Shown: piece by piece, positions 1,221-43,918 of the stretch | Layout: every line of letters starts with the position of its first letter | Position numbering within the stretch: position 1 is the stretch's first letter | Origin: an uncultured Planctomycetia bacterium | Lineage (GTDB): Bacteria > Omnitrophota > Gorgyraeia > B26-G9 | Length of the DNA stretch: 64,000 nucleotides | Direction: 5' to 3' | NCBI GenBank assembly: GCA_964437495.1 | Contig: CAYTGV010000003.1 | Span: 17,910 to 81,909, forward strand | The notes under the pieces: model-generated | The model's database searches: none | What the model was told of the DNA's origin: nothing | What the model saw: only the letters and a program-made list of their open reading frames with translations | Position numbers and translations under genes: made by a program

Positions 1221-2338
1221 AACGTGTTGTTATCATCGGAGGAGGATTTGCCGGACTTTCTGCTGCTGAGTGTCTTAAAAAGTATAAAAAACAGGTTGAG
1301 GTTGTGCTTATTGACAAAAAGAGCCGAACTGATTTTCTGCCATTATTGCCTGATATTTTAAGTGAGCGCATAGATAATAAATTTTTATCTGCTGATCTTA
1401 ATAAGCTTGGAGAAAAGTTGTTATTTGATTTTATTAACAGCCGTGTTAATGGGATAGATCTTGAAAAAAAGAAAATATCATTAATTGATAAAGATCTCTC
1501 GTATGATTATCTTATAATTTCCTCAGGCTCTCAAACTAATTTCTACAATAATATTTCTCTTAGCAAATCCGCGTTTAAGCTTGATGATATCCACGACGCA
1601 AAATTCCTATTGGATTGCCTTGATTGTCAAAAACATAAAAGTTTTATTGTTAGCGGTGGGGGGTATACAGGAATTGAAATAGCAACTAATATCTGGCGTT
1701 ACTTTTTTAAAAAGGATCAAAAGAAACGGATTGTAATAATAGAAAAAGCTTCGATTTTACTTGCGAAACTTCCAGATTGGATGAGAGAATATGTAATGGA
1801 TAATTTGCTTAGCTTAGGGGTGGAAATACGTCTTGATGCTCAGATTGAATCTTATTCACAAGACAGGGTTATTCTTAAGGGAGGAGAATCTTTTGCAAAT
1901 GCTGCGCTTATTTGGACAGCAGGTGTTAAGGTGCAGGATTTTGTCTGGAATTACGGTTTTGTTTGTGATCATCAGGGCCGGGTGATCGTGGATGAGTATT
2001 TGCGATTAAACAGCAATTGCTTTTGCGTTGGTGATACGGCGCATTTTGATCACAAAGGTGCTGCTCTTAGAATGTCTATTCAGTTTTCTATTATGCAGGG
2101 AGCATTGGCTGCGGCAAATATTATGCGTTGTATTACCAATAAACAATTGAAAGAGTATCGTCCTTTTGATCCGGGATATATAATACCTATGGCTAATAAC
2201 AAGGCCTGTGGTAATGTATTTGGTCTAAAGGTGAAAGGGCCTTTTGCGGTTTTATTGCATTATTCTATGTGTATTTTTCGTTCATATTCTTTGTCGAACA
2301 AATTGGGGATCATTAAAAATCTATTAAAAGGCTTTTAA
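1217..2338 (+). CDS. FAD-dependent pyridine nucleotide-disulfide oxidoreductase, type II NADH:quinone oxidoreductase (NDH-2)-like
   Basis: N-terminal VVIIGGGFAGLSAA Rossmann motif, TDFLPLLP motif typical of NDH-2, second GGGYTGIE dinucleotide motif; start overlaps the upstream prenyltransferase (ATGA). Confidence 0.65.
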   Translation: MKRVVIIGGGFAGLSAAECLKKYKKQVEVVLIDKKSRTDFLPLLPDILSERIDNKFLSADLNKLGEKLLFDFINSRVNGIDLEKKKISLIDKDLSYDYLIISSGSQTNFYNNISLSKSAFKLDDIHDAKFLLDCLDCQKHKSFIVSGGGYTGIEIATNIWRYFFKKDQKKRIVIIEKASILLAKLPDWMREYVMDNLLSLGVEIRLDAQIESYSQDRVILKGGESFANAALIWTAGVKVQDFVWNYGFVCDHQGRVIVDEYLRLNSNCFCVGDTAHFDHKGAALRMSIQFSIMQGALAAANIMRCITNKQLKEYRPFDPGYIIPMANNKACGNVFGLKVKGPFAVLLHYSMCIFRSYSLSNKLGIIKNLLKGF

Positions 2339-26186: not shown

Positions 26187-26325
26187 AAGCATTTGCGTAT
26201 TGTTTAGGGATTAATTGAAAATAATAAAATCAGCAGCTTTTATTTGAAGCATTAAAATGATATTTTGCAGTAATTTTTTATGAAGCTTTGTCTAAAACTT
26301 TTACTCGATATAAAATATAGCTACT

Positions 26326-26361
26326 ATGAATAGAAAATTCTACATTAAAACCTTCGGCTGA
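26326..26361 (+). pseudogene. miaB: host-derived 5' remnant of miaB (MNRKFYIKTFG then TGA) left at the left junction of the integrated element
   Basis: atgaatagaaaattctacattaaaaccttcggcTGA; FYIKTFG identical to residues 16-22 of the intact MiaB at 45508; TTCGG core 26353-26357. Confidence 0.65.
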
Positions 26362-26692
26362 CCCTTGGATTGCGCTCTACAAAGTTCTCAAACCATTCCT
26401 TTTAACTATTTTCCATCCTGAATTGACTTAATAATGCACCGCCCCGCCTTCGGCGGGGCTACTTGGGCATTGTTTAACCGTTCGCCTCAGCTAGGGCTTC
26501 GGCTCTCTGCGCACTCGCTAGGCCGCTCGCTTCGTGCTCATGCGTTACTACGATCCGGCTTTGGTCTGCCTCACTTCGCCAGAAATGGCTTCGTTTGGCA
26601 TCCCAGCGTCCTCTCCCGAGCAAAACCTCATAATTTAATGCTTATTTCTTTTTTTGGCGGCGGCGAAATATTTATTTAAAAAGGTGTGTTTT
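26362..26692 (+). repeat. GC-rich structured repeat 'a' (copy 1, element left end), about 330 bp, multiple UUCG-type hairpins
   Basis: About 90% identical to reverse complement of 36627-36966; GC content far above flanking DNA; e.g. ccgccccgccTTCGgcggggc hairpin. Confidence 0.7.
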
Positions 26693-26737
26693 GCTCGGTC
26701 GAGTCCGCGCGTCGCTTCGCGCCGCCAAGCCGAATCT

Positions 26738-26852
26738 GTCTTGCTGTCGTAGTGCTGTAATACCCCACCCACCCGGCAGTCTTTGTGCTCGGGCTCAACC
26801 ACTTCGTGTTTTCGCTTACCTGCGCTCAAAGCCAGCTTCCCCTTAAAAGGAA
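26738..26852 (+). repeat. repeat 'b' (copy 1) containing ccccacccacccg ... cctgcgctcaaagcc, followed by promoter of first island operon
   Basis: Direct-orientation similarity to 37143-37318. Confidence 0.5.
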
Positions 26853-27060
26853 GAGGAGACCTGTATCAAATATTCATCAACACTTCTGTCTTTTTTGCAA
26901 AAAGCCAGAACAGTCCGCAACGCCAAAAGACATCCGCCTTAGGCGGAAGACATTTGCCCTTCGGGTTCGCGTTGCTTTGATGAATATTTGAAAAGTTTTC
27001 AATACAAAGCTTTTGCTAATATATATTGCACACACGGTGCAATATGTGTATAATATTAAC

Positions 27061-28068
27061 ATGACTAATGTTTCTATTCCAGAAGCTTCATATTCCAATC
27101 TATTAAAAAAATTAAAAAAAGAAATTGCTGAAGGCCTAGTCCGTGCCCAGAGAGCTTATGACAGGGAAAAAGTCATAGCTTACTGGAAAATAGGTCAATC
27201 AATCTCCAAACATCTTTCAAAAAATAAGGATAGAGCAGATTATGGCAAGAAACTATATAAAAGACTTTCTGATGATCTTTCTATCGGGGAACGCCTACTT
27301 TATCAAATATCTCAATTTTACAATACATATCCTCATTTTAAACCTTCCCAAAACTTAAAATGGTCCCATTATCGTTTATTGACCTCAGTTAAAGACGAAG
27401 GGAAGAGAACTCTTCTTGAAACTAAAGTCTCAAATGATAACTGGTCAAAGAGAGCATTAGAAGATTTTATTAGAGAAGACAAAGAGCAAGATGTTGAACC
27501 TACAAAGCCTTCCATAAAAAGAACGAAAAAGCTATCTTGTTCTAAAGGCAGGTTGTATACATACAAGATATTCAAAGATGACTATGCGGATAATATGCTT
27601 ATAGATTGCGGGTTTAATACTTATAGAGAATCCGAAATGGCAAGTTTTAAGGGGGACTTTGTAGAAACCGTTAAAGCAGAAGATAGCTACAAACTGCTTA
27701 AGTCAACCGCTACTCGTAAACATCTATATACTTACAAGGCATATATTAAAAAGATAATTGACGGTGATACTATCTGGGTAAATATAGATTGTGGTTTTAA
27801 GACATGGGTTAAGCAAAAAATCCGGTTGCGTGGCATAGATACTCCCGAGATTGAGACGAAAAAGGGGATAGAATCGTTTAAGTTTGTTTGCAAGGTACTT
27901 AAAAACCTACCATTCATTATAATCAAAAGTCATGGCAGAGATAAATACGACCGTTATCTTATGGATCTTTATTACACAAAAGGAGAAGAAAACCCTTTAG
28001 TTGTCCTAGAGAAGGGGGCATTTCTTAATCAAGTGCTTTTGGATAAGAATTTAGCAATACGGGTATAA
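27061..28068 (+). CDS. nuclease: DUF1016 (YhcG) N-terminal domain fused to staphylococcal-nuclease (SNase/thermonuclease) domain
   Basis: N-terminal LKWSHYRLLTSV motif of DUF1016_N. C-terminal IIDGDTIWVN...IRLRGIDTPEIETKKG matches the SNase motif (DGDT ... R.GID.PE). A degenerate first SNase-like repeat precedes it. TATAAT 27046-27051 only 9 nt before ATG 27061 suggests a leaderless transcript. Confidence 0.6.
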   Translation: MTNVSIPEASYSNLLKKLKKEIAEGLVRAQRAYDREKVIAYWKIGQSISKHLSKNKDRADYGKKLYKRLSDDLSIGERLLYQISQFYNTYPHFKPSQNLKWSHYRLLTSVKDEGKRTLLETKVSNDNWSKRALEDFIREDKEQDVEPTKPSIKRTKKLSCSKGRLYTYKIFKDDYADNMLIDCGFNTYRESEMASFKGDFVETVKAEDSYKLLKSTATRKHLYTYKAYIKKIIDGDTIWVNIDCGFKTWVKQKIRLRGIDTPEIETKKGIESFKFVCKVLKNLPFIIIKSHGRDKYDRYLMDLYYTKGEENPLVVLEKGAFLNQVLLDKNLAIRV

Positions 28069-28134
28069 ATAATACAGATGTAGGGGGAGGGGCTTGTCTC
28101 CGCCCGCTAATCATAGACAGTTGTGTTAATAAAT

Positions 28135-28156
28135 AGTACGTAGTATACTACGTACT
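28135..28156. promoter_or_regulatory. 22-bp perfect palindrome AGTACGTAGTATACTACGTACT immediately upstream of the AbrB-like gene (candidate operator)
   Basis: Read directly; 12 bp upstream of RBS taggagg for ATG 28169. Confidence 0.5.
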
Positions 28157-28168
28157 ATAGGAGGCTTA

Positions 28169-28351
28169 ATGATGGCTAGATATAAGAAGGAAGATGGAGT
28201 GGTTAGGAAATTAACCAAAACAGGAAAATACACTTATTACGTAACAATTCCAAGAGAATATATTGCAACACTTGGATGGAGAAAAAAGCAAAAAGTATCA
28301 GTTCGGCTTTCAGGAAAGAAGATTATTATTGAGGATTGGAAGACACAATAA
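28169..28351 (+). CDS. AbrB/MazE/SpoVT-like swapped-hairpin DNA-binding protein (antitoxin-like), 60 aa
   Basis: YYVTIPREYIATLGWRKKQKVSV matches SpoVT/AbrB domain consensus (tv.IPkeir..lgi..gd.v). Confidence 0.5.
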   Translation: MMARYKKEDGVVRKLTKTGKYTYYVTIPREYIATLGWRKKQKVSVRLSGKKIIIEDWKTQ

Positions 28352-28464
28352 GCATTATTGTTGTATTTTTTGTACTTTGATTGCTCTAACTATATGAATG
28401 TTGTATAATAGATACTAACATTGTATATTTCAATAATAAAGACAATAATATTATTGAGGGAGAT

Positions 28465-28911
28465 ATGAGTATAATTGACTTAACACAACAAGAAGCAGAT
28501 GCATTAATTGCTATGGATAAAGTACGTATTAGCGATGAGCGGTATCTATTTCCTCAGCTTGGTGGTTCCTTAAGAATTCCTTTAAAATCGAAGGATGCAC
28601 GAGAGGAATTTATGCTTGATATTACCAGAGGTCAGATTAACCTTAAGAAAAATACTTTTCAAAATAGAGCACGTAAAGCAATAGTGCTAGTTAGGGTTGA
28701 TATTGATGGCCCCCCTCATTGTAATCCAGATGATAAAATAGTAGATTGCCCACATATTCATACTTATCGTGAAGGTTTTGGTGATAAATGGGCAGTCTCT
28801 TTGCCGGATTTTTTCTCGAAACCCGATGATAGTTGGACGACACTCGAAGAATTCATGAAGTATTGTAATATTTCTGATAAGCCGAATATTACTAGGGAAT
28901 TATTTATATGA
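28465..28911 (+). CDS. hypothetical protein (148 aa) with [10 protein letters not shown] motif, translationally coupled to next gene
   Basis: ORF; stop overlaps next start (ATGA). Confidence 0.4.
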
Positions 28912-29675
28912 AGGATGAAATTCAAAAATTATTAGATAATTATAATTTGTGGTTAAAAGATAGAACCGTTCTGAAACAAATTACTGATAAATGGGTTGAA
29001 ATTACTACGCCTCATCTTGATCGGCATAATGATTGTTTGCAGATTTATGTATTCAAACAAAATAATGGCTATTTAATAACAGATGATTCATATATAATTA
29101 CTGACTTAGCAAATTCAGGGTGTACTATAGATACTCCTAAGCGTCAAGAGCTTCTTAGGATGACTTTAGCTGGTTTTGGAGTGCAATTAGATGGTGATCG
29201 TTTAGTTGTTCATGCTACTTTTGAAAATTTTTCGCAAAAAAAACATAATATTATTCAGGCAATGGTGGCAGTTAATGATCTTTTTTATTTGGCGTCTCCT
29301 TATGTGTCTAGTATTTTTTATGAAGATGTTGCCAAATGGCTTGATCTTTCCGACATACGTTATACCCCTAAAGTTAAATTTACTGGTAAAACAGGGTATG
29401 ATTATATGTTTGATTTTGTAGTGCCTAAATCTAGGCAAGCACCTGAACGGATTTTACAGACAGTTAATAATCCTAAAAAAGATTCTGCTGAAGCCCTGCT
29501 TTATAGATGGATGGATACAAAGGAAACAAGACCACCAGATTCTAGATTGTATGCCTTTTTAAATGATTCCAATTTTCGTGTTTCGCAATCTGTTGTTGAT
29601 GCATTGGCAAGTTATGATGCGGTTCCTATTTTGTGGTCAAACCGTGAAGGGACACGCAAAGCATTATGTTCTTAG
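28908..29675 (+). CDS. DUF1828/DUF1829-type protein (255 aa)
   Basis: N-terminal LWLKD ... [20 protein letters not shown] resembles DUF1828 N-terminal region, C-terminal half DUF1829-like; assignment from memory of family consensus. Confidence 0.45.
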
Positions 29676-29809
29676 ATTTGTTATGATTAAAGGTCACATA
29701 TAATATCTAAAAAGAGGTCTCTTACTGCAATAAGTTGTTTTTTGAGTAGAATACGTTTACTTAATAGGTGAAAATCTAAAACTTAAATATTTTCGAAAAA
29801 GGGTATCAA

Positions 29810-32800
29810 ATGAGCTCTGATTTAACCTTTATAACCAATGAAAAGAATAAGCACTTACTTGACCGCTTTAAAGTTCTTATTAAAGACACACGTTTCTTTG
29901 ATGTTCTTGTCGGGTATTTTTATACAAGTGGTTTTCATGCCTTATATAAATCATTAGAATCTACTGAGAAGATCAGAATTCTTATTGGTATCAGCACTAA
30001 TAAAGAGACTGTTACTCTTTTTAATAAAGCAAATTATAATCTCCAGCCAACCTTTCAGTTTTCTCATGCAGAAGTTAAAAAGGAATTTGAAAATCATGTA
30101 AGTGAAGAGATGGAGAATTCGGAAGATAATCCCCATGTCGAAGAAGGGGTTTTAAAGTTCATTGAATGGCTAAAAATTGGAAAGCTTGAGATCAAAGCTT
30201 ATCCAACTCAAAATATACATGCAAAACTCTACATTATGACCTTTACTGAAGATGATCGCGATAAAGGGAGGGTGATAACAGGTTCAAGTAATTTTACTGA
30301 AGCTGGATTAAGGGATAACTTAGAATTTAATGTTGAGTTAAAAAATAGATCGGACTACGATTTTTCCTTGCAGAAATTCAATGAGCTTTGGGAAGATGCA
30401 GTAGATGTTAAAGATAAGTATATTGAGTCTATTCAGACAAAAACGTGGTTGAATGATACTATTACGCCTTATGAGTTGTATTTAAAGTTTTTATATGAAT
30501 ATTTTAAAGAAGATTTGAGTCAACCTGAAGAGGTTTTTTACCGTTATGTCCCTTCAGAATTCATGAAGCTTGAATATCAAGAACAAGCAGTATTGAATGC
30601 AAAGCGAATTCTTGATGAGTATGGCGGGGTTTTTATTTCTGATGTTGTTGGTTTAGGAAAAACTTATGTTTCTGCCTTACTTGCGCAACAATTAGATGGG
30701 CGGACATTAGTTATTGCTCCCCCGGTTCTTTTAGATAAGTGTAATCCGGGGTCGTGGCCAAATGTATTTTCTGATTTTAAAGTGGCTGCTGATTTCGAAT
30801 CATTAGGCAAGTTAGATAGCTTAATTAAAAGAGGAGCAGATAAATATAAAAATATCTTTATTGATGAAGCTCATCGTTTTAGAACAGAAACTAATATGAC
30901 CTATGAAAAGCTTGCTCAAATTTGCAGGGGCAAACGAATAATTTTAGTTACAGCAACTCCTTACAATAACTCTCCTAAAGATATTTTAAGTCAGATTAAG
31001 CTCTTTCAAAAAGGCAGGAATAGCACTATTCCTAATCTACCTGATTTGGAAAGGTTTTTTGGGGCTTTAGGGAAAAGAATAAAGAAGCTTGATAGACAGA
31101 AAGATTATAAAGAATATATAAGTATTGTTAGAAATAATGCGAAAGAAATCAGAGAAAAAGTTTTAAAATATTTAATGGTTCGGCGCACTCGCAATGAAAT
31201 CGTCAACCATTTTTCAAGGGATTTAAAAGAGCAAAATTTGAAGTTTCCAGATGTAGCTGATCCTGAAGCTATATTCTACGAATTAAATGATGAGGAAGAT
31301 AAGGTTTTTACTCAGACTATAGAGCTTATTGCTAAGAAGTTTAAATATTCTCGTTACACCCCATTATTATATTATCAAGGGAAAATTACCCAACCAGAAG
31401 AGTTAGCTCAAAGAAATATGGGCAAGTTCATGAAAATTCTTTTGATTAAAAGACTAGAGAGTAGCTTTTTTGCTTTTAGAAATTCTATAAGTAGATTTAT
31501 TGTTTCGTATACCCACTTTTTGAATGAACTAGATAAAGGCAATGTTTATGTCAGTAAAAAGCATATGAGTAAATTATTTGACTTGCTAGAAAATGACGAT
31601 GAAGAAGCAATTCAACGACTAATAGAAGAAGATAAAGCTAAAAAATATGATGCAAAAGATTTCAAAAAAGATTTTAAAAATGACTTAAAACATGATTTAG
31701 GAATATTATTAACCATTAAGAGGTTATGGGAAACCGTAAAAAGAGACCCTAAGCTTTTAGCGGCAAAACAGAAGTTGTCATCGAGGAAAATACTTAAAGA
31801 GCAAAAACTGATTATTTTTACTGAATCAAAAGAAACTGCTGATTATTTGTCAGGACATCTCAACGAATTATATAAAGATAAAGTTTTATGTTTTTCAGGC
31901 AGTTCTAGCGCTAGGATAAGAGAAAGGGTAATTGAAAATTTTGATGCAAAGGCTAGATATCCGAAGGATGATTATAGAATTCTTGTAAGTACAGAGGTTC
32001 TTTCAGAAGGTGTTAATTTGCATAGGTCCAATGTAGTTATTAATTACGACATTCCTTGGAATCCAACCCGTTTAATGCAAAGGGTAGGGCGAATTAATCG
32101 TGTCGATACAAAATTTAATAAGATTCATAGTTTTAATTTTTTTCCGACTAAGCAGTCAAATGATCAGATTAAACTGAAAGAGGCTGCTGAAGGTAAAATC
32201 CATGCTTTTATTTCAATGCTTGGAGCAGATGCTCGGTTGCTCACTGAAGGTGAGCCTATTGAGTCATTCGAATTGTTTAATAAATTACTTTCTAAAAAGA
32301 CGATTACTGGGGAAGATGAGCATGAGGAAAGCGAGTTGAAATATTTACAAGTTATAAAGGAGATTCGAGATAAAAACATAGACTTATTTGAAAAAGTAAA
32401 ACGATTGCCAAAAAAATCTAGGACAGCAAGGATTTTAAAAGATGCAAAAAATGCCCTTCTTACTTATTTTCGAAAGGGCAAATTACATAAGTTTTATATG
32501 GTAAGAATGAAGACTGAACCCGAGGAATTAGATTTTATTTCTGCAGCAAAGCGGTTGGAGGCTAGCCAGAGTGAGAAACGAGAAAAAATAAGTAAAGATT
32601 TATATGAGTTGTTAGAGAAAAATAAGCAAGCTTTTCATCATGCCACATTTGAAGAAGTGCCTGAGATTAAAGGGAAAGGTGGTCGTGATACTGTAACTTT
32701 AGTGTTAAGGATTCTTAAAACGAATGATATCAGGCGTTATAAGGGGTATACAGAGGATGATGAGCTCTATATTAAAAAAGTAATCAAAGAGGTAGAAGAA

Positions 32801-33001
32801 GGCGGTCTACCCAGACAAACTTCAAAGACTTTATTGAAAGAACTTCAAAAAGAATTGAAAAAAGGAGTTAATCCATTAAAGATATTAGCAATTTTAAAGA
32901 TGAATATTCCTGCTGAATTTTTACAAGAAGCTGCTTTTCAAACTGCTGCTCAAATTTTCGGCCCCAGAGAAGTGATTTTATCAGAATATTTTAAAGGTTG
33001 A
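29810..33001 (+). CDS. PLD-family (HKD) nuclease domain fused to SNF2/DEAD-like helicase (1063 aa)
   Basis: N-terminal NIHAKLYIMTF ... ITGSSNFTEAG is the HxK(x)4D(x)6GSxN PLD motif. Helicase domain shows Walker A GLGKTYVSALLA, DEAH-like FIDEAHRF, motif VI MQRVGRINR, and C-terminal STEVLSEGVNLHRSNVVINYDIPWNP. Confidence 0.8.
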   Translation: MSSDLTFITNEKNKHLLDRFKVLIKDTRFFDVLVGYFYTSGFHALYKSLESTEKIRILIGISTNKETVTLFNKANYNLQPTFQFSHAEVKKEFENHVSEEMENSEDNPHVEEGVLKFIEWLKIGKLEIKAYPTQNIHAKLYIMTFTEDDRDKGRVITGSSNFTEAGLRDNLEFNVELKNRSDYDFSLQKFNELWEDAVDVKDKYIESIQTKTWLNDTITPYELYLKFLYEYFKEDLSQPEEVFYRYVPSEFMKLEYQEQAVLNAKRILDEYGGVFISDVVGLGKTYVSALLAQQLDGRTLVIAPPVLLDKCNPGSWPNVFSDFKVAADFESLGKLDSLIKRGADKYKNIFIDEAHRFRTETNMTYEKLAQICRGKRIILVTATPYNNSPKDILSQIKLFQKGRNSTIPNLPDLERFFGALGKRIKKLDRQKDYKEYISIVRNNAKEIREKVLKYLMVRRTRNEIVNHFSRDLKEQNLKFPDVADPEAIFYELNDEEDKVFTQTIELIAKKFKYSRYTPLLYYQGKITQPEELAQRNMGKFMKILLIKRLESSFFAFRNSISRFIVSYTHFLNELDKGNVYVSKKHMSKLFDLLENDDEEAIQRLIEEDKAKKYDAKDFKKDFKNDLKHDLGILLTIKRLWETVKRDPKLLAAKQKLSSRKILKEQKLIIFTESKETADYLSGHLNELYKDKVLCFSGSSSARIRERVIENFDAKARYPKDDYRILVSTEVLSEGVNLHRSNVVINYDIPWNPTRLMQRVGRINRVDTKFNKIHSFNFFPTKQSNDQIKLKEAAEGKIHAFISMLGADARLLTEGEPIESFELFNKLLSKKTITGEDEHEESELKYLQVIKEIRDKNIDLFEKVKRLPKKSRTARILKDAKNALLTYFRKGKLHKFYMVRMKTEPEELDFISAAKRLEASQSEKREKISKDLYELLEKNKQAFHHATFEEVPEIKGKGGRDTVTLVLRILKTNDIRRYKGYTEDDELYIKKVIKEVEEGGLPRQTSKTLLKELQKELKKGVNPLKILAILKMNIPAEFLQEAAFQTAAQIFGPREVILSEYFKG

Positions 33002-33005
33002 CCTA

Positions 33006-36000
33006 ATGGAAAGAAAGCAAGCAAATAAGATAGTCAAAGATACTTTTGAAAATCCCTTCAATAAAGAACAATTCGTCTATTTTATCAAAAACCTTCTTAA
33101 TCATATTGAAGAAACTCCTGGTACGCTTTATCGTGGTAATTATATTCCTGATGCTTATGCTCCTTATGTAAATACATTAGAGCGTTTAGGTAAATATTTA
33201 GATGCTGATGAACGGTCAATAGATGTATTGATAGTTAATCTTAAAAAAAATACTTCTCTAGAGCGTGCACGTACTATGCAGCGTAATTTTATTGCTTGGT
33301 ATTTGAATGGTAGTCGAGGAGGGGTATTAAAAGATGCTGCATTGGTTGCTTTTGTTTCTCCAGCACAAGAAGATTGGAGATTTTCTCTAGTAAAAATGGA
33401 GTATAGTTTAGATACCAGCGGAGAAAAGGTTAAAACAAAAAAAGAGTTAACCCCTGCCAGAAGATTTTCTTTCTTAGTTGGAAAAAATGAAAATACGCAT
33501 ACTGCCCAAAGTTACTTATCCCCTATAATAGCTGATGAGAGTAAAGATTTAAATTTAAGTAATATAGAGAATGCCTTCAGTATTGAAAAAGTAACAAAAG
33601 AATTCTTTGAAAAATATAGAGATTTATTTCTTAAATTGACAGACTCTCTAAATGAGATAGTTAAAAAAGATCAAAAAGTTAGGGCTGATTTTAAAAACAG
33701 AGGAGTAGAAACTGTAAATTTTACCAAAAAGCTTTTAGGGCAGGTAGTATTTCTTTATTTTTTGCAAAAGAAAGGTTGGTTTGGAGTAGGAAGAGATGAA
33801 GAGTGGGGAACAGGACCTAAGAATTTTTTAAGGCTTCTTTTTGAGAAAAAGATTGTTGATTATAATAATTTTTTCAATGATATTTTGGAACCATTGTTCT
33901 ATGAGGCATTAGCTACTGAAAGAGAAGATAGTTTTTATAGCAGATTTAACTGTAAAATTCCATTTTTAAATGGCGGATTATTTGATCCTATTAATAATTA
34001 CGATTGGGTTCATACCGATATTGTTTTATTAAATGATATTTTCTCAAATAAGCATAAGACAAAAGAAGGTGATGAAGGGTCAGGAATTTTAGATGTTTTT
34101 GATAGATATAATTTTACTGTTAAGGAAGATGAGCCGCTTGAAAAAGAAGTAGCCGTAGACCCTGAAATGCTTGGTAAGGTTTTTGAGAATTTATTGGAAG
34201 TAAAAGATAGAAAGTCCAAAGGTACTTATTATACTCCCAGAGAGATTGTGCACTATATGTGCCAACAAAGTTTATGCAATTATTTGGCAGAAGAGCTTAA
34301 GGAAAAAATCACAAAAGAAGAGATTGATACGCTTATAAAATACGGAGAAAGTGCTATAGAACATGATAGTAGAGTTGAAACCTATGGAAAAGAAACAAAA
34401 ACTTATTCTTTTAAACTTTCTGAGAATATTAGAAAGAATGCATCTTTAATTGATGAAAAACTTTCGGATATTCGTGTATGTGATCCTGCTGTTGGTTCTG
34501 GAGCTTTTCTCGTTGGAATGATGAACGAAATTGTTCGTGTCCGCAATGCTTTAACTACCTATTTAAGAGATAAAAAGCAAAGAACCTTTTATGATTTTAA
34601 ACGGAATGCTATCCATTATTCTCTTTATGGGGTAGATATGGATCCAGGTGCTACTGAGATAGCTAAACTTAGACTTTGGTTGTCACTTGTTGTAGATGAA
34701 GAAGATATTAAACAAATTAAACCATTGCCTAATTTGGACTATAAGATTATGCAGGGCAATAGTCTAATTGAGGATTTAGTTATTAACAATATTGTTATTA
34801 AGTTTAATCTAGATGATGTAGTTAAAGTTGATCGTCGTACCAAGAAAACAAAAGAGTTATTTAAAAAAGAAGTGCAGCATACACTTTTTAAAGATAAAAG
34901 TGAGGATATTTTTGAAGAATTAAAGAAGTTGCATTCTGTTTATTTTGAAGAGAATAATAAAAACAAGAGGTTAATTTTAAAAGAAAAGATTGTTAGTACA
35001 GAGCAGTTATTTATAACAGCAAAATGCGAAGAAGAAATAGAGCGGTTAAATGTATTTAAGAATAATTGTCGAGATAGAAAAAGAATAAGCAATGTCGAAA
35101 GTCAAATAAAAACCATTCATTCTACGCTTCGTAAATTAAAAAAAGAAGGAACAAAACCTTTTTTCTTATGGAAGCTTAATTTTTCTGAAGTTTTTATTGA
35201 TAAAGGTGGGTTTGATGTGATTGTGGGGAATCCTCCTTATGTTCAGCTTCAAAAAACTGGTGGAGAATTAGCTAATGTTTATGAGCAGTGCGATTATGTT
35301 ACTTTTTCACGGACTGGTGACATTTATACATTATTTTATGAAAAAGCTCATCGCTTGTTGCGGACTCATGGGATAGCTTGTTTGATAACTTCTAATAAAT
35401 GGATGCGGGCTGGATATGGCAAATTGATTCGTAGGTACTTTATAGATGTTGTTTCTCTTCTTATTCTTATTGATTTTGGTGATGCACCATTATTCAAGAA
35501 TGCAACAACTTATACCAATATACTTCTTTTTAAGAATATTCCACCTAGTGATTGCAGATGTTCTGTTTATGACTTAAGTAAAGAGAAAGGCGTAGAGGGT
35601 AGATTATTATATTACCTCAGGAACTTGCAAGGAAAATATATTTCCAATTTTACAGAGGTAAGTTATTTGATTGTTAATAAATATGAATTCCAAATAAAGC
35701 AGAAGGTTGAAGCTAAAGGCATACCATTAAAAAATTGGGATATTGATATTTATCGGGGTATTTTGACTGGATTCAATGAAGCTTTTATTATTAACACCGA
35801 GATAAAAGAACGTTTATGCCGGGAAGATCCTAATTGTTTAAAAATTATTAAACCTATATTGAGAGGGCGGGATGTTAAAAGGTATAAAGCGGAATTTGCT
35901 GGATTGTGGTTGATTAATACCCACAATGGTTATGATAATGAGCCTCCAGTTGATATTAATGATTATCCAGTAATTAAAGATTATTTGAAGGAGATTGAAA

Positions 36001-36530
36001 GGAAACGTGTGGCTGGCGAGTATGGAGAAAAGGCCAAAAAAGCTAAAGGATTATTTAAGCGTGATGATCAGGGCATAACACCTTATAACTTAAGAAATTG
36101 TGCATATATCCCTAGTTTAGAGTTGGGTAAGATTATTTGGGCAGAAATAGTATTTGATTCTGCATTTTATTATGATGAGGATAACTATTATCCTGAGGCA
36201 ACATGTTTTGTCATGATAGGTAATAGGTTAAAGTACTTACAGGCTCTACTAAATTCTAAATTACTAACGTTTGCATTTAGAAAGTATTATGCTGGAGGAG
36301 ATTTAAGAGGTAATACTTTTAGATACAAGAAAGTTTTTGTTGAAAAACTGCCTGTGCTACGAATTTCTGAGCGCGAACAGCAATCTTTTGGAAAAATAGT
36401 AGATAAGATAGTTGGTGATAAAAAGAAAGGTAAAGATACTCTTATTTTGGAAGAAGAAATTGATGAACTTGTGTTTGATCTCTATGCTTTGACTGCAGAA
36501 GAACGAGAACAGGTAAGGAATTCATACTAA
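33006..36530 (+). CDS. large gamma-class N6-adenine DNA methyltransferase with C-terminal target-recognition region (PglX/MmeI-like, 1174 aa)
   Basis: Motif I VCDPAVGSGAFLVG (FxGxG), motif IV VGNPPYVQ (NPPY), about 430 aa C-terminal extension; separated by 4 nt from helicase gene (operon). Confidence 0.75.
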   Translation: MERKQANKIVKDTFENPFNKEQFVYFIKNLLNHIEETPGTLYRGNYIPDAYAPYVNTLERLGKYLDADERSIDVLIVNLKKNTSLERARTMQRNFIAWYLNGSRGGVLKDAALVAFVSPAQEDWRFSLVKMEYSLDTSGEKVKTKKELTPARRFSFLVGKNENTHTAQSYLSPIIADESKDLNLSNIENAFSIEKVTKEFFEKYRDLFLKLTDSLNEIVKKDQKVRADFKNRGVETVNFTKKLLGQVVFLYFLQKKGWFGVGRDEEWGTGPKNFLRLLFEKKIVDYNNFFNDILEPLFYEALATEREDSFYSRFNCKIPFLNGGLFDPINNYDWVHTDIVLLNDIFSNKHKTKEGDEGSGILDVFDRYNFTVKEDEPLEKEVAVDPEMLGKVFENLLEVKDRKSKGTYYTPREIVHYMCQQSLCNYLAEELKEKITKEEIDTLIKYGESAIEHDSRVETYGKETKTYSFKLSENIRKNASLIDEKLSDIRVCDPAVGSGAFLVGMMNEIVRVRNALTTYLRDKKQRTFYDFKRNAIHYSLYGVDMDPGATEIAKLRLWLSLVVDEEDIKQIKPLPNLDYKIMQGNSLIEDLVINNIVIKFNLDDVVKVDRRTKKTKELFKKEVQHTLFKDKSEDIFEELKKLHSVYFEENNKNKRLILKEKIVSTEQLFITAKCEEEIERLNVFKNNCRDRKRISNVESQIKTIHSTLRKLKKEGTKPFFLWKLNFSEVFIDKGGFDVIVGNPPYVQLQKTGGELANVYEQCDYVTFSRTGDIYTLFYEKAHRLLRTHGIACLITSNKWMRAGYGKLIRRYFIDVVSLLILIDFGDAPLFKNATTYTNILLFKNIPPSDCRCSVYDLSKEKGVEGRLLYYLRNLQGKYISNFTEVSYLIVNKYEFQIKQKVEAKGIPLKNWDIDIYRGILTGFNEAFIINTEIKERLCREDPNCLKIIKPILRGRDVKRYKAEFAGLWLINTHNGYDNEPPVDINDYPVIKDYLKEIERKRVAGEYGEKAKKAKGLFKRDDQGITPYNLRNCAYIPSLELGKIIWAEIVFDSAFYYDEDNYYPEATCFVMIGNRLKYLQALLNSKLLTFAFRKYYAGGDLRGNTFRYKKVFVEKLPVLRISEREQQSFGKIVDKIVGDKKKGKDTLILEEEIDELVFDLYALTAEEREQVRNSY

Positions 36531-36626
36531 TATTCCCGCCCTTTGCAATCGCAGTCGTCCGGCTTCATCCCGATAATTCGGTATTCCGCAACGTACTTTG
36601 TGCGCTTGCCCCCCCCCTAAAGGAAA

Positions 36627-36966
36627 CAAAAACACACCTTTTTAAAAAAATATTTCGCCGCCGCCAAAAAAAGAAATAAACGTTCAATTATGAGGGTTTT
36701 GCTCGGGAGAGGACGCAGGGATGCTAAACGAAGCCATTTCTGGCGAAGTGAGGCAGACCAAAGCCGGATCGTAGTAACGCATGAGCACGAAGCGAGCGGC
36801 CCAGCGAGCGAGGCAGTGAGCCGAAGCCCCAGCTGAGGCGAACGGTGCAAACACTGCCCAAGTAGCCCCGCCGAAGGCGGGGCGGTGCATCATAAAGTCA
36901 ATTCAGGTAGGAAAACAGTAAAAAGGAATGGTTTGAGAACTTTGTAGAGTGCAATCCAAGGGTCAA
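36627..36966 (-). repeat. GC-rich repeat 'a' (copy 2, inverted)
   Basis: Reverse complement aligns base-for-base with 26362-26692, with scattered substitutions. Confidence 0.7.
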
Positions 36967-37141
36967 CCGAATGTCTTAATGTAGAAACTTTTCGGCGAAT
37001 TTTTGTAAGCCGTTGATTTTGTTGACATTGTGATTTTCTTTCTGTTTCTGAAAACAAAAAATTAAAAGGGGGGAAAAGAGAAAAAGAAATTCTTTTATGG
37101 GGTCGAGCGCCGCCGATGGCGGGGGCGATTTTGATGTTTTT
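36967..37141 (-). repeat. inverted copy of miaB promoter/5'-start segment 'r' (near-identical to 45395-45569); with repeat 'a' forms an attP-like junction
   Basis: Reverse complement of 36967-37141 is almost identical to 45395-45569, including ttctacattaagacaTTCGGttg; continues into repeat 'a' instead of miaB. Confidence 0.7.
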
Positions 37142-37142
37142 C

Positions 37143-37318
37143 GTCTTGCTCTCGCTAATGTCTCGCAATCCGTCACACATCTCCCTAGATGTGCGTTAAA
37201 AAGCAGAAAAAAAGAAAAACCCCCACCCACCCGAAAATTGTCTCTGTGCTCGGACTTCTACGCCTCTGGCGTATTCGTTCCCTGCGCTCAGAGCCAATTT
37301 GTTCCCCCTAAAAATGGA
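37143..37318 (+). repeat. repeat 'b' (copy 2), followed by TTGACA...TAAAGT promoter of second island operon
   Basis: Similarity to 26738-26852 (gtcttgctNtcg ... ccccacccacccg ... cctgcgctcagagcc). Confidence 0.5.
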
Positions 37319-37319
37319 G

Positions 37320-37348
37320 CTTGACAAAATATGACAAAATGTGTAAAG
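37320..37348 (+). promoter_or_regulatory. sigma70-like promoter TTGACA-N17-TAAAGT, about 10 nt before ATG 37359 (near-leaderless)
   Basis: ttgacaaaatatgacaaaatgtgtaaagt read directly. Confidence 0.45.
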
Positions 37349-37358
37349 TGGGTTCACT

Positions 37359-37541
37359 ATGGAAAAACGATATAATTTAAGCAAAGCGGCAAAAGAATTA
37401 GGCATCACTCGCCAAGGTCTTTATTACTGGATAAAGAAAGGGTGGGTTACGCCTAAACGTGATTTTAAGAATCATCCTGTTTTTACGGATGCTGATTTGA
37501 AAAAGATTAAAGGGTGGATGAATAAATTAAAGGATTCCTGA
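37359..37541 (+). CDS. excisionase/AlpA-like HTH DNA-binding protein (candidate recombination directionality factor or regulator), 60 aa
   Basis: LSKAAKELGITRQGLYYWIKKGWV helix-turn-helix of excisionase-type; first gene of second island operon. Confidence 0.5.
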   Translation: MEKRYNLSKAAKELGITRQGLYYWIKKGWVTPKRDFKNHPVFTDADLKKIKGWMNKLKDS

Positions 37542-37543
37542 TT

Positions 37544-39148
37544 ATGAATATTGAAATCTTTATTGGGTTCTTAGGGCTTTTGATTACGATGTATGCTATT
37601 GCCCCAGAGGTGGTCAAGGCTAGGGTTCATGCTTTTATTAATCCATTGCTGTTTAAAATCGCGATACCTTTATATATAGTTGTATCTTTGTGCGTTCTTT
37701 ATTTTGAGCATTATTACTTAGATGATGTTTTAATGTGTGAAGTTTTATTTTGGGCAAAATATCTTTCTTATTGTGGGATATTCTTGTTAATATGGTTTAT
37801 CTATACATCTTTGAGAGATAGAAAGCTGGGGAAATCAAATATTGAAAGGTTTTATAAATTCCTAAAAGTTCTTTTGTCAAAGCAGCAGTTTTCAATATTA
37901 ATTGATATATTACATGGTAGTCTTAAATACATACTTCCATTATATAATGTTCAAGCAAAACCTGAAAAGTGTAAGAAATTAAAAAATACCATTATGGTTG
38001 GCGGCAAGGTTATTCCTTTTCCAGTTTTTCCATCTGATTCTTTTGAGACAGAGATTTCAAAAAAGATATTTAGAGACGTAATTTTTAACGAATCGTTCAT
38101 AAGGGCAAATATTCATTATGGGAAAAATTTTTCTATTGATTTTATAAGTGGTTGTAGAAAAAATAAAATACACATAAGTGATTATTCGGACTTGTTTCTT
38201 TATGAGCTTTTAAAAAACAAAGACTCTTTCCTCTATCAAGAATTAAAAGAAACGCTTACAGTCTATTCTCCAAGTAACGATGAATTTGATAGGTTTCCAT
38301 TTTTACATGTATTATTTGAGGATATTAAATACTTTAATGAACAGGGATTTTATAGAGGAATAGGGGAGTATGTCATTGAATTTGTTGATAGAAATATTGA
38401 CAGTAATAATGAGCGATATAGCCGTAGTACTAAATATTATTGGGATCAACGTGAGCGAGATGGTAAATACAAATGTCCTGTTTATATGGGACTTAGTTAT
38501 TTTACATATATGGTGAACAAGGCTATACGTGAGAATATTCAAAGCCATATGTGGCTTTTGTATGTTCATTATTGGGTTAAAGCGATATGTAAGAAAATGG
38601 TTTACTATGAAGATGAATGGCAGGGGGGCGGTGAGTTTCCTACAATTTACTGTTATTTGCTTTATGAGCTGCTTGGTATCCATGGCAATTGGGTTAAGCA
38701 TATATATGAAGTTTCAAGCGAGGAACAACATGGTAGTTCTTTTCAGCAGGACGATAAATCAATTGATATAAGTGAGGAAAGGGAGTTAATTTTAGAATGG
38801 ATACTTAAGGATATGCTTTATTGTGCTGATAGTATCGCGCAATGTGAAGCCATCCCCTATGATAAGCGTGTGTACTTACTTAAAACGTTTATGGGTGTAA
38901 ATATTGGGATAAAAAGCAACTTTTCTCAATACGGGAAAGCTTGTATTGCAAAAGCCACCAATTTAAATAAAGTTATTAGTATATATATAGATGAGTTTGA
39001 AAAAAGAATACGTAACAAGAATTACTCAAAAGCTTTTAACGAAGATTTAAAAAATGCGTGTCAAGATGCATTAGAATCAATGGATACAATTCCTTTAGAC
39101 AGTAATATTGTTAGATTTTGGAAGGGCTGGCTCAGTGGATTACAGTAA
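37544..39148 (+). CDS. membrane-anchored protein of unknown function (534 aa; 3 N-terminal TM helices + large cytoplasmic domain)
   Basis: Hydrophobic segments at residues about 5-20, 40-55, 75-90; no recognisable catalytic motif; start 3 nt after HTH gene stop. Confidence 0.4.
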   Translation: MNIEIFIGFLGLLITMYAIAPEVVKARVHAFINPLLFKIAIPLYIVVSLCVLYFEHYYLDDVLMCEVLFWAKYLSYCGIFLLIWFIYTSLRDRKLGKSNIERFYKFLKVLLSKQQFSILIDILHGSLKYILPLYNVQAKPEKCKKLKNTIMVGGKVIPFPVFPSDSFETEISKKIFRDVIFNESFIRANIHYGKNFSIDFISGCRKNKIHISDYSDLFLYELLKNKDSFLYQELKETLTVYSPSNDEFDRFPFLHVLFEDIKYFNEQGFYRGIGEYVIEFVDRNIDSNNERYSRSTKYYWDQRERDGKYKCPVYMGLSYFTYMVNKAIRENIQSHMWLLYVHYWVKAICKKMVYYEDEWQGGGEFPTIYCYLLYELLGIHGNWVKHIYEVSSEEQHGSSFQQDDKSIDISEERELILEWILKDMLYCADSIAQCEAIPYDKRVYLLKTFMGVNIGIKSNFSQYGKACIAKATNLNKVISIYIDEFEKRIRNKNYSKAFNEDLKNACQDALESMDTIPLDSNIVRFWKGWLSGLQ

Positions 39149-39267
39149 ATTATGAAAGTATCAATTTGTATAAGAGTTTCAACTGGAGACCAAGTTAAAG
39201 AGAGGTTACTCTAAGAAATCTAAATAGGTTGTTTTGAGGGCGTTGTTATTATTAAGATTTAAAATTT

Positions 39268-40149
39268 ATGAGAAATATAAATAGATATTTTTGTCGAGCA
39301 TTAGATTCCAATAACACATTTTCGCCAAGTGTTCATTGGGAGCATTGTCTTTTGTTAGAAAAGGCAATGTTGGATATATTACAATATATTCCCATACATG
39401 ATGGGATGCCGGATGAGAATTGGAAAGTTAGCAGTCCAAAATTAATAGATATATTTGTCAAGTCATGCTTCCTTTTTGAAGCGGCATTTAAAGGTATTTC
39501 AAATGAACCAACGGATCGTATTGTCAACTATCTTAAACAAAATGCATATGTATGGAGTGAATATTTTCTTGATGGAAAAAATCGCAACGGCAAATGTAAA
39601 GAATTAGATATTTGCGATTTTTTAACCTTTTATGACGCGTATTGTTCCTTGAACTTCTTAGAAGCAAGAATCAGATGTTCTCAAAATATTAGTGACGTTT
39701 GGGTAAATAAAATGACTGTAATTCGTCCATTTTTTAATATGAAACTCGAAAATAATGTAGTAATTAAATCCCCTGATTGGTGGAAAAAATACACACAAAT
39801 TAAACATAATTTTTATTCCTATCCACAAGAAATTAATTTGGAAGCTACAATTGAAGCTTTAGCTGCATTGATATCTTTCACCGCAGTTGTTCCTCAGATG
39901 CGTCGATTACTCTGCGATCATGGGTACATACAGGATAATTTTAAAAAACCTTTTGATATTGAAAAAATCGGACGAAAAATTAATGATAAATTTGTTAAGG
40001 ACCCTTGGGTTAACCATAAAAAAATGTTCTTCGAGGAATATGATGATATTGATACGATGCCCGCTATTGCATGTGTATCAGATTTATTTATAGTACCTTT
40101 TGTAGGCGATTATAGAAAAGCTAGATTATGGTCGGGGATAGGAAAATAA
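39268..40149 (+). CDS. hypothetical protein (293 aa), no recognised domain
   Basis: ORF in operon context; Cys/His-rich, W-rich C-terminal region. Confidence 0.35.
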   Translation: MRNINRYFCRALDSNNTFSPSVHWEHCLLLEKAMLDILQYIPIHDGMPDENWKVSSPKLIDIFVKSCFLFEAAFKGISNEPTDRIVNYLKQNAYVWSEYFLDGKNRNGKCKELDICDFLTFYDAYCSLNFLEARIRCSQNISDVWVNKMTVIRPFFNMKLENNVVIKSPDWWKKYTQIKHNFYSYPQEINLEATIEALAALISFTAVVPQMRRLLCDHGYIQDNFKKPFDIEKIGRKINDKFVKDPWVNHKKMFFEEYDDIDTMPAIACVSDLFIVPFVGDYRKARLWSGIGK

Positions 40150-40154
40150 GAGTT

Positions 40155-40246
40155 GATAAAACCAGAAAGAGATTATAGTACTTTTCCGGTGTTTACAAAT
40201 GCTGATTTAAAGAAAATTAAAAGGTGGAAAGATAAAATTAAATAAA
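40155..40246 (+). pseudogene. 3'-end remnant of a second copy of the excisionase-like HTH gene (ELIKPERDYSTFPVFTNADLKKIKRWKDKIK then stop)
   Basis: Translation aligns with C-terminus of 37359 gene (GWVTPKRDFKNHPVFTDADLKKIKGWMNKLK); no start codon or HTH portion. Confidence 0.5.
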
Positions 40247-40268
40247 GAGGTGTTAAGGACTTAATAAT

Positions 40269-41060
40269 ATGGCACATTTAACTACTAATGAAAAACAAAT
40301 TCTTGAGAAGCTCTTTCAACTGGGAGGGGGCTATGTTTTGAATTTTTCTGATAGAACCATGGGGGAGTTTTTTAAAGACGATGTTGGTATTGATATATAC
40401 GATGAAAAGTATAATTATGCCAGTGGTTCAAAGGCTAATCGTATGCGTGGATTTTGGCGTGAGGCAAATAATGCAATAGTTAGCGCCTCGATTATTAAAT
40501 TAGTTGAGTATCTTAAAAACCAGATGCTTTTAGGCGAATTGAAAGAGAAAGAATTTCCTGAAAAATTATTACAGCGTGCTTTACAAATAGCGAGTAAATT
40601 AGCCGCAAATGATAACAAGAATGTGGTTTTTACAGTAAAGCCAATCAAAACACTTGTAGCCCAACTTCAAGAAGCTAAATTAAAAGATGGTAAAATTACT
40701 ATAACTTTACACAAGAAAGTTTTTGACCACGTTCAAAGCCTTCTGTCTGATGGACACTACTTTAATGCAGTTGAAGAAGCATATAAAATCGTTAGAAATA
40801 AATTGCGCGATGTTAGCGGTAGCGAGAGGGCAACGGATGCTTTTAAAGAGGCTAACTATGAGCGTATTTTTGGTCATAATCCGGCAAATCAAGCGGAAAA
40901 AGATTTTTATGAAGGAGTAAAATTTTTACATATGGCTATACAGTTTTTAAGGAATGAAAAAGCTCATACACCAGCATATGATTTAGATAAAAATTTGGCA
41001 ATTCATTATATAGCACTAGCTAGCTTGGCGTATGATTTGGTTGATAGGCAAAAGAAGTAA
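40269..41060 (+). CDS. HEPN-domain protein of the TIGR02391-like family (263 aa)
   Basis: C-terminal FLRNEKAHTP (R-x4-H HEPN motif) within GHYFNAVEEAYKIVRNKLRD ... context typical of TIGR02391/Abi-associated HEPN. Confidence 0.5.
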   Translation: MAHLTTNEKQILEKLFQLGGGYVLNFSDRTMGEFFKDDVGIDIYDEKYNYASGSKANRMRGFWREANNAIVSASIIKLVEYLKNQMLLGELKEKEFPEKLLQRALQIASKLAANDNKNVVFTVKPIKTLVAQLQEAKLKDGKITITLHKKVFDHVQSLLSDGHYFNAVEEAYKIVRNKLRDVSGSERATDAFKEANYERIFGHNPANQAEKDFYEGVKFLHMAIQFLRNEKAHTPAYDLDKNLAIHYIALASLAYDLVDRQKK

Positions 41061-41144
41061 ATATCTATTGCAATTATCCTGTATTTACAGAACTAGATTT
41101 TTTAAAAATTAAAATTTGGGAAAAGAAACTAAAAGAGGTGTGAT

Positions 41145-43916: not shown

Positions 43917-43918
43917 AA

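Follow-up and report, generated by a model that had tools for sequence, protein, structure and literature searches.

A conserved, structured, non-coding module beside the large serine recombinase attachment sites of miaB-targeting defence islands in Omnitrophota-like genomes

What is the GC-rich, hairpin-dense repeat that stands twice, in inverted orientation, in a genomic island of an uncultured Omnitrophota-lineage bacterium? We addressed this question in a stretch of 64,000 nt (positions 17,910 to 81,909 of contig CAYTGV010000003.1, assembly GCA_964437495.1), here called the window, in which a large serine recombinase (LSR) has put an island (26361-45572) into the 5' end of the gene miaB. 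The original prediction, made from the letters alone, had described the repeat as a candidate structured non-coding RNA (ncRNA) or recombinase-recognition module at the ends of an element. The analysis described below shows that the repeat consists of a P' arm with a linker over its first ~75 nt and, for the most part, of a conserved, structured, non-coding module marking the P' side of LSR attachment (att) sites. The module belongs to a widespread family of miaB-targeting defence islands, and we infer a mechanism for it below.

By BLAST, the two inverted copies extend over 26333-26692 and 36629-36993, with 92.3% identity over 365 nt and three 1-nt indels; the predicted GC-rich twin is therefore real and slightly longer than had been claimed. 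The GC content is 0.50 in the 500-nt bins 26501-27000 and 36501-37000, versus about 0.30-0.42 elsewhere in the window and about 36% over the whole window. Only the central ~190 nt of the repeat (about 26436-26625) are GC-rich, with values of 0.54-0.66 in 50-nt bins; AT-rich sequence makes up the initial ~75 nt and the final ~70 nt. Both UUCG-loop hairpins that the prediction had quoted, ccgccccgccTTCGgcggggc (26438-26458) and gggcTTCGgctc (26493-26504), were located in the sequence. The fold of the whole segment, compared with those of shuffled sequences, gave z values of -2.0 for the plus strand and -1.8 for the minus strand. Because this fold only modestly beats the shuffles, the hairpin density of the single window copy is weak evidence alone, and the case for structure comes from the homologues.

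The island was inserted at the codons for the conserved ..YI(K/R)TFGCQMN motif of miaB, and it swaps in its own miaB N-terminus and start (MSTKSTAYKNSPKSFYIKTFGCQMN) for those of the host. Comparison of three junctions placed the crossover in the TG that ends TTCGG(C/T)TG. The left site, attL (B-P'), lies at 26360 (crossover TG 26359-26360) and the right site, attR (P-B'), at 45572 (TG 45571-45572), and an intact P-P' (attP-like) junction is read on the minus strand at 36627-37141. The crossover TG is adjoined by ACCCTTGG... at 26361 and, inverted, at 36963, whereas attR reads ..GGTTG followed by CCAGATG instead. The P' sequence directly adjoins the crossover and is common to attL and attP, but not to attR or attB, as is proper to a half-site. 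The module accordingly lies where it had been placed, directly inside attL and beside the internal attP-like junction. The description 'at element ends' suits one copy, which abuts attL, but not the other, which stands at the internal inverted P-P' junction. A guide-like RNA, which had also been suggested, found no support, as the att core and arms resemble ordinary LSR sites. The P arm occurs as a perfect inverted repeat of 178 bp on either side of the segment comprising the helix-turn-helix (HTH) gene, the second cargo segment and the LSR gene. The LSR open reading frame (ORF) passes through the P arm and the crossover and ends 8 nt into miaB; it overlaps the new miaB start in another frame.

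Homologues of the module were collected by a pattern scan of metagenome contigs and then an nhmmer profile, which gave 83 matches and 36 non-redundant full copies on Omnitrophota-like contigs; individual loci are denoted here by L numbers. A 16-nt core pattern was rejected as unspecific in genome contigs, its 120 rows being mostly chance matches with only about 13 real loci. All 36 full modules come after a miaB-derived mini-ORF whose stop codon, TGA, arises at the crossover. All inspected neighbourhoods adjoin an att junction or an LSR gene, and the 64-kb window holds only two copies, both at att junctions. A dispersed repeat similar to repetitive extragenic palindromic sequences or miniature inverted-repeat transposable elements was rejected on this ground, for the window and the contigs inspected. 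The module boundary always lies at (TAA/TGA)TGCACCGCC, and conservation is higher in its blocks than in the LSR arms. Because the reading frame is broken by 1-nt indels between the window copies and between the conserved blocks of 34 homologues (for example, CACTGCTTCGC versus CACTCCACGC), the module is non-coding, in agreement with the prediction.

Only the first ~30 nt change with the recombinase family, occurring as the P' arm types TGACCCTTGGTTTG.., TGGCCTTTTGTTTC.. and TGACCTTCTATACA.., and the same GC-rich 260 nt are found with all of these arm types and also with other LSR families that have unrelated flanks (L140, L141, L152). The module is therefore not a specific recognition sequence of the LSR in the window, and these comparisons indicate that it is a backbone component common to a group of LSR islands. 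As a 'recombinase-recognition module', the prediction applies to the first ~30-75 nt and fails for the GC-rich part, which is kept beside LSRs with very different att arms. Two kinds of junction were met, one with the N-terminus of the host (attL-type) and one with the N-terminus supplied by the island (P-type). Past the shared ~330 nt there are two conserved continuations: type A, with a long helix and a cUUCGg hairpin, goes on to the promoter of xis or cargo, and type B runs directly up to the 3' ends of convergent cargo genes. As a rule, attL-type junctions are paired with A (n=13) and P-type junctions with B (n=7). In the window, a second structured leader occurs as direct repeats (26693-26850 and 37142-37358) that hold CCCACCCACCC and then GTCT(T/C)TGTGCTCGG..CCTGCGCTCA(A/G)AGCC; the first comes after the left module copy, and the second stands between the inverted P arm and the HTH gene.

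The check for compensatory base changes, which the prediction had named, was positive for at least two hairpins in the homologues, and a single-stranded structure is thus under selection. RNAalifold on a gappy 34-sequence MAFFT alignment was uninformative, returning one invariant long-range stem only, and a block-wise pair analysis was used instead. For the variable hairpin between CGATTCGGCTT and GCGTCCTC, 8 of 17 pairs are compensatory and 95% of the cells are paired, versus 35-49% with a slid partner; none of 500 shuffles reached the observed values. Hairpin H2 has 6 compensatory pairs out of 12 and a covariation score of 0.313 versus 0.134 in shuffles (0/500). In distant subfamilies, H1 appears with alternative complementary stems (CCCGC/GCGGG, CGCCC/GGGCG, CCGCC/GGCGG and CGCGC/GCGCG), and the site of the variable hairpin holds unrelated stems in other subfamilies, including the GCCA-GAAA-TGGC hairpin of the window. 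The main helix of the A continuation alternates between CUUUG/CAAAG and CACAG/UUGUG, and its cUUCGg hairpin varies in the stem. Behind this helix stands a run of 2-5 U (4-5 U in 10 of 17 copies), which the terminator scan does not call, and the xis promoter and HTH gene come next. Two long-range pairings also appear plausible from the sequences, namely the complementarity GATTCGGCTT/AAGCCGAATC, a perfect 10-mer in 11 type-A copies, and AGGCCG/CGGCUU, proposed by RNAalifold; since both are invariant, covariation cannot test them. Stems kept by compensatory change mean a single-stranded fold, which by itself does not make the strand RNA. Also seen, inserted at several positions of the module and in both orientations, was a small optional hairpin, CCYU-GAG(C/A)GAA(G/A)UCGA-AGGG, whose 12-nt loop is conserved and whose stem of 3-5 bp covaries (L160, L154, L143, L240, L152, L233, L091, L101, L057). 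The features of the window and of the side unit discussed below are listed in Table 1.

Table 1. Features of the island in the window and a hairpin unit in related loci (window coordinates unless a locus is given)
Feature	Position	Strand	Remarks
Promoter-like site TTGTCT-17-TAAAAT	26288-26316	+	upstream of the displaced miaB start; would read into the left module copy; consensus scan only
Displaced original miaB start	26326-26361	+	11 codons, MNRKFYIKTFG then stop; B arm of attL; TGA 26359-26361 arises at the crossover
P' arm (ACCCTTGGATTGCGCTCTACAA...) and AT-rich linker	26361-26435	+	when P and P' are joined, the LSR frame crosses and stops at TAATAA 26430-26435
GC-rich module, left copy	26436-26692	+	inverted repeat ends at 26692
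Hairpin H1	26438-26458	+	left module copy
Hairpin H2	26479-26506	+	left module copy
Block CTCGCTAGGCCGCTCGCT	26513-26530	+	conserved, left copy
Block CGATCCGGCTT	26550-26560	+	conserved, left copy
Local hairpin	26566-26599	+	left copy
Block GCGTCCTC	26605-26612	+	conserved, left copy
GGCGGCGGCG	26655-26664	+	left module copy
AAAAAGGTG	26677-26685	+	left module copy
A continuation of the module	26693-26850	+	outside the inverted repeat
GTTTTGCTCGG, then hairpin	within 26693-26850	+	GTTTTGCTCGG pairs with 26616-26626
AAGCCGAATC	26727-26736	+	complementary to 26551-26560 except one C.A mismatch
CCCACCCACCC	26764-26774	+	A continuation; then long helix and short U-run
Further GC-rich hairpin unit (CATCAA...TTGATG)	26851-27000	+	also in L131, L101, L142
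Cargo segment 1	27013-36530	+	between the inverted module copies; DUF1016-nuclease (PDC-S02), PDC-M24A/B, HKD-Snf2 helicase, type IIG restriction-methylase
Promoter-like site of first cargo gene	27027-27054	+	after the CATCAA...TTGATG unit
B continuation of the inner copy (GGCAAGCGCACAAAG...CCGAATTATCGG...GAAGCCGGACGACTGCGATTGC)	36531-36626	-	starts right behind the stop codon of the convergent methylase gene
GC-rich module, inner inverted copy	36627-36887	-	inverted relative to the left copy
P' arm and linker of the inner junction	36888-36963	-	inverted
Inner P arm, inverted	36964-37141	-	100% identical to 45395-45572; element-supplied miaB N-terminus (..TKSTAYKNSPKSFYIKTFG, stop) and LSR tail frame
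A2 leader, homologous to the A continuation	37142-37358	+	CCCACCCACCC at 37222-37232; promoter-like site 37321-37349
60-aa HTH/excisionase-like gene	37359-37541	+	after the A2 leader
LSR gene	43913-45580	+	Resolvase, Recombinase and Zn_ribbon_recom domains in homologues
P arm at attR	45395-45572	+	holds the new miaB start, ATG at 45508
Chlorobi-1-like hairpin	L152 2112-2165; L209 524-576; L130 1755-1809		loop AGUGGGGG (G-rich, 8 nt), flanked by A- and U-runs

The relation of the module to the LSR reading frame is as follows. The AT-rich P' linker is open in the LSR frame for 20-30 codons, and the module anchor follows the first stop in this frame after 0-10 nt in 26 of the 36 copies and after at most 35 nt in the rest. 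In L152, which has an LSR of an unrelated family, TGCACCGCC comes immediately after the TAA stop of the LSR gene, and the order LSR, P-P' junction, module can be read directly in L186, L137 and L152. The LSR has two tails, ..HSVAR in the integrated state versus ..HSVDPWIALYKVLKPFLFTVFLPELTL in the joined state. A free-standing 96-aa ORF with the joined-state tail is found at the inner junction (36890-37180, minus strand); in L001 and L005-L007 this ORF was called as an 89-94-aa gene. Since the frame is open through the linker, the LSR gene crosses the crossover once P and P' are joined, and the module is then its immediate 3' flank; in the integrated state the module is 19 kb from the LSR gene, behind the orphaned miaB promoter. 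The conservation of the LSR tail could stem from DNA-level constraints of the att arms.

The position, the conservation, the non-coding nature, the covarying hairpins and the stop-codon placement are seen in the data. Beyond these, we infer that the module is transcribed, that RNA is its active form, and whichever sign an effect on the LSR may have. The reading that we favour, tentatively and at rather less than an even chance, is that the module would be a cis-acting structured RNA, acting both as a boundary insulator and as a state-dependent 3' untranslated region (UTR) of the LSR mRNA with a logic like that of lambda sib. It is favoured because the same geometry is known for lambda sib and for integrase genes extending across attP. 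Lambda sib is a structured RNA encoded across attP from the integrase gene of a tyrosine-integrase phage, a single RNase III hairpin of ~100 nt; the integrase transcript includes it only while P and P' are joined, and integration takes it away. Similarly, the module begins at the LSR stop in the P-P' state, and integration splits the module (at attL) from the LSR (at attR). Unlike sib, the module is 0.3-0.55 kb in length and has multiple hairpins, it belongs to LSR defence islands, and the island retains another copy in its interior, in inverted orientation. The genes intP of Myxococcus phage Mx8 and int of fusellovirus SSV1 also span attP, and integration changes their 3' ends. The LSR ORF likewise crosses the crossover and has a different tail in the integrated and the joined states; the enzyme is a serine recombinase here, whereas those of Mx8 and SSV1 are tyrosine recombinases.

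According to this proposal, the module would be transcribed from a promoter outside the att site, which at attL would be the orphaned miaB promoter, and at the P-P' junction by transcription of the LSR gene or from the P arm. The module RNA would start directly behind a stop codon, and its stable hairpins, together with the helix and U-run of the A continuation, would stop or buffer transcription from outside ahead of the xis or cargo promoter of the island. As the module stands across the crossover from the LSR gene, it would become the 3' UTR of the LSR mRNA only in the joined (excised or flipped) state, and LSR expression would then depend on the state of the element, as in the logic of sib.

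Several features count for an RNA on the P to P' (top) strand. The UUCG and GAAA loops are on this strand, the stems below the cUUCGg loops varying both in the window and in the A continuation of relatives; the wobble pairs of H2 number 8 on the top versus 2 on the bottom strand; the upstream ORFs end exactly at the module; and the helix and U-run of the A continuation come right before the xis promoter. Other results weigh against the cis-acting RNA. In minimum free energy, the top strand of the whole module is the more stable one in 12 of 24 copies, which is no strand preference, and the window copy folds only about two standard deviations better than shuffles. In H2, the top strand shows two tandem T.C/C.T internal loops, which are conserved (68 of 76 cells); the bottom strand would have tandem G.A pairs (CGAG/CGAG) there and folds 2-3.5 kcal/mol better, tandem G.A mismatches being stabilising. 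The stems of the variable hairpin are near-perfect over 17 bp, its loop is found in either orientation (GGGTGGGG or its complement CCCCCACC) and its wobble counts are symmetric (10 versus 8), so that it looks more like a DNA palindrome; optional hairpins such as CCYT-GAGCGAAGTCGA-AGGG, inserted in either orientation, also count for a palindrome in DNA. A simple scan found no intrinsic terminator (hairpin and U-run) within the module on either strand, and a plain insulator would not need strictly conserved unpaired blocks.

These points bear on the alternatives. It is possible, although we consider it unlikely, that the module is an independent and perhaps trans-acting structured ncRNA of ~0.3-0.55 kb, a regulator or scaffold of the LSR-island backbone that may be encoded on the strand opposite to P to P', in which case its closeness to the att site would be a matter of gene order only. 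The sharply conserved 5' boundary TGCACCGCC, the strongly conserved unpaired blocks CGCTCGCTNGGCCGCTCGCT, CGATTCGGCTT and GCGTCCTC, which are typical of functional RNAs, the hairpins of variable length at fixed points, and the 10-nt long-range complementarity would all be in keeping with such an RNA. So would the tandem G.A motifs, which would arise on the bottom strand, and the fact that the bottom strand of the inner copy is co-directional with all island genes in the window. However, the promoter scan found no conserved promoter on either strand, nor did it support a sigma-70 promoter inside the module around CGGCGGCGGCGAAAAATTTATAAAAGGTG; the module has no Rfam relative and no constant partner gene besides the LSR and xis, the cargo differing by island, and the long-range pairings, being invariant, are beyond the covariation test. 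A cis element at the DNA level, whose hairpins would form in single-stranded or supercoiled DNA, is in our estimate similarly doubtful. It could be an origin of transfer (oriT) through which a helper element mobilises the island, an origin or priming site used by the excised circle, or a site with an accessory or architectural part in recombination or inversion. The long near-perfect palindromes, the loops and optional hairpins found in either orientation, and the absence of strand bias among the wobble pairs of the variable hairpin all speak for such an element, as does the fixed location of the module, right inside the att site of islands whose genes are limited to int, xis and cargo. The motif GGCGGCGG recurs in the P-arm hairpin, in hairpin loops and at the 3' end of the module, and both repeat-flanked segments occur in both orientations in different metagenomes. 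On the other hand, no relaxase, Rep or primase gene was seen among the scanned proteins of the window island (although a relaxase may come from a helper), LSRs are not known to need accessory sites, at least five hairpins with conserved linkers go far beyond known oriTs, and the covarying UUCG-loop stems and the stop-codon placement favour RNA.

The two remaining alternatives appear much less probable. That the GC-rich palindromes are functionless, sitting at a tolerated intergenic spot and kept alike by gene conversion between the inverted copies, is very unlikely: optional hairpins do come, go and flip, and the two P arms of each island are homogenised (94-100% identical), but the blocks are conserved over islands with LSRs of 58-88% identity and across LSR families, the stems are maintained by compensatory changes, and just two copies exist in 64 kb, both beside att sites. 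Least probable, in our view, is an extended recognition arm along whose 330 bp the LSR or its HTH partner would bind. The repeat is contiguous with the crossover, and its first ~30 nt (TGACCCTTGGNTNNNNNTNTACAA) are conserved in the family and change with the LSR type; yet LSR att sites measure ~40-50 bp, with ~25 bp per half-site, miaB-targeting LSRs of at least three arm types have the same module beside them, as do other LSR families whose flanks are unrelated, and the module stems covary, which is not required of double-stranded protein sites.

The islands share their layout. Hundreds of LSR relatives (58-88% identity) were found, mostly labelled Omnitrophota or Omnitrophica, and every readable locus has the constant order of inverted P arm with the start of inverted P', HTH gene, variable defence cargo, LSR gene, P arm and miaB. 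The island layout is not accidental, and the inverted internal P-P' junction is a conserved part of the island family. The P arms are 94-100% identical within one island and 77-92% identical between islands, and the homogeneity within islands suggests gene conversion or frequent recombination. Across metagenomes, on separate contigs and not within one population, both segments flanked by the inverted repeats were met in either orientation, which fits either inversion between the repeats or integration via either of two attP sites. The segment of cargo 1 is flipped in L196, L149, L017, L226 and L233, and the LSR gene is directly upstream of P-P', module and B in L186 and L137. A further, improbable reading of this arrangement is a three-site LSR system (attL, inverted internal attP and attR), in which the recombinase or repeat-guided recombination would flip or exchange defence segments while miaB is kept intact, the module, as RNA or DNA, licensing or regulating the reactions. 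If true, this would represent a novel mode in which a serine integrase operates a modular, invertible defence island. In the yeast 2-micron plasmid and in plastid genomes, two unique segments are parted by inverted repeats with a recombination site, and both relative orientations are found in nature, as for the island segments; in contrast to those replicons, the island is integrated, its repeats are LSR att half-sites, and it has no replication function.

The defence cargo of the island also includes a Ppl-like ATPase. Two neighbouring cargo ORFs of 392 and 503 aa (41145-43916) gave only weak matches to Ppl/AAA_21, and the domain scan of the island proteins found no family match at all for 37544-40149; the ORFs in both intervals are possible candidates for uncharacterised defence genes. 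The many contigs ending inside the module (L001, L003-L005, L007, L016, L107) or bounded by its inverted copies (L196, L131, L200, L226, L163, L241, L184) indicate that it breaks short-read assemblies, and island sizes and copy numbers in metagenome-assembled genomes are probably underestimated.

The module is absent from Rfam and from the phage, plasmid and viral sequences searched. The Rfam 15 search, at gathering and permissive thresholds, covered the window and 18 related loci; it gave no match in the window at the gathering threshold, none over the module at E<=10 and none in 8 homologous loci at E<=1, and the segment is a fragment of no Rfam family. BLASTN against the phage and plasmid collections gave no module match, and neither did an exact 30-mer search of viral contigs; a two-block pattern had two matches there, both chance matches on contigs of 63-67% GC that nhmmer rejected. 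ARAGORN detected no tRNA or tmRNA in the window or at the module in related loci, its sole gene being a tRNA-Leu in L141, far from the module, and a tRNA or tmRNA origin of the flanks was rejected on this basis. The second hairpin of the Rfam family Chlorobi-1 (RF01696) was matched at 24.6-32 bits, relative to a gathering score of 50, in L152, L209 and L130, at the far 3' end of the module region, where it looks like a bidirectional terminator. Similar loops, GGGUGGGG and GGGCGGCG, occur in the variable hairpin of the module; unlike in Chlorobi-1, the first hairpin of that family is absent from the relatives, and the window has no match. The match is thus a one-hairpin resemblance and not family membership. 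In L152, a promoter-like TTGCAA-17-TATAAT and a terminator-like hairpin with a T-run bound a ~75-nt unit (1632-1747, minus strand) that is antisense to the 3' end of the LSR gene, just outside the module, and is also present in L191, L130, L239, L147 and L209. This small minus-strand promoter-terminator unit is what had at first been taken for a tRNA-like 3' end in the L152 family, a candidate that was rejected.

Gene-restoring and stacking islands are known at other targets, namely the dusA islands (PMC4482086), SCCmec-type arrays with defence cargo (PMC11470126) and the Dehalococcoides ssrA islands with serine recombinases (PMC3146451). As their abstracts describe them, they resemble the present islands in being site-specific in a conserved gene, restoring the gene end, carrying cargo or defence genes and being able to stack at the site; the abstracts describe no conserved GC-rich module beside att and no internal inverted attP-like junction, and the target miaB and the Omnitrophota-like host differ. 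Our literature search on miaB, serine recombinases, Omnitrophota and defence islands found nothing relevant.

The module family marks the boundaries of widespread miaB-targeting defence islands, which allows their easy delimitation in metagenomes, and its sharp conserved blocks are direct experimental handles. LSRs are in wide use for genome engineering, and directionality factors are usually regarded as their only regulators. If the module is indeed a state-dependent RNA element, no control element of this kind would have been described for LSRs before, and the structured non-coding families would gain a sizeable new member from a phylum that has received little study.

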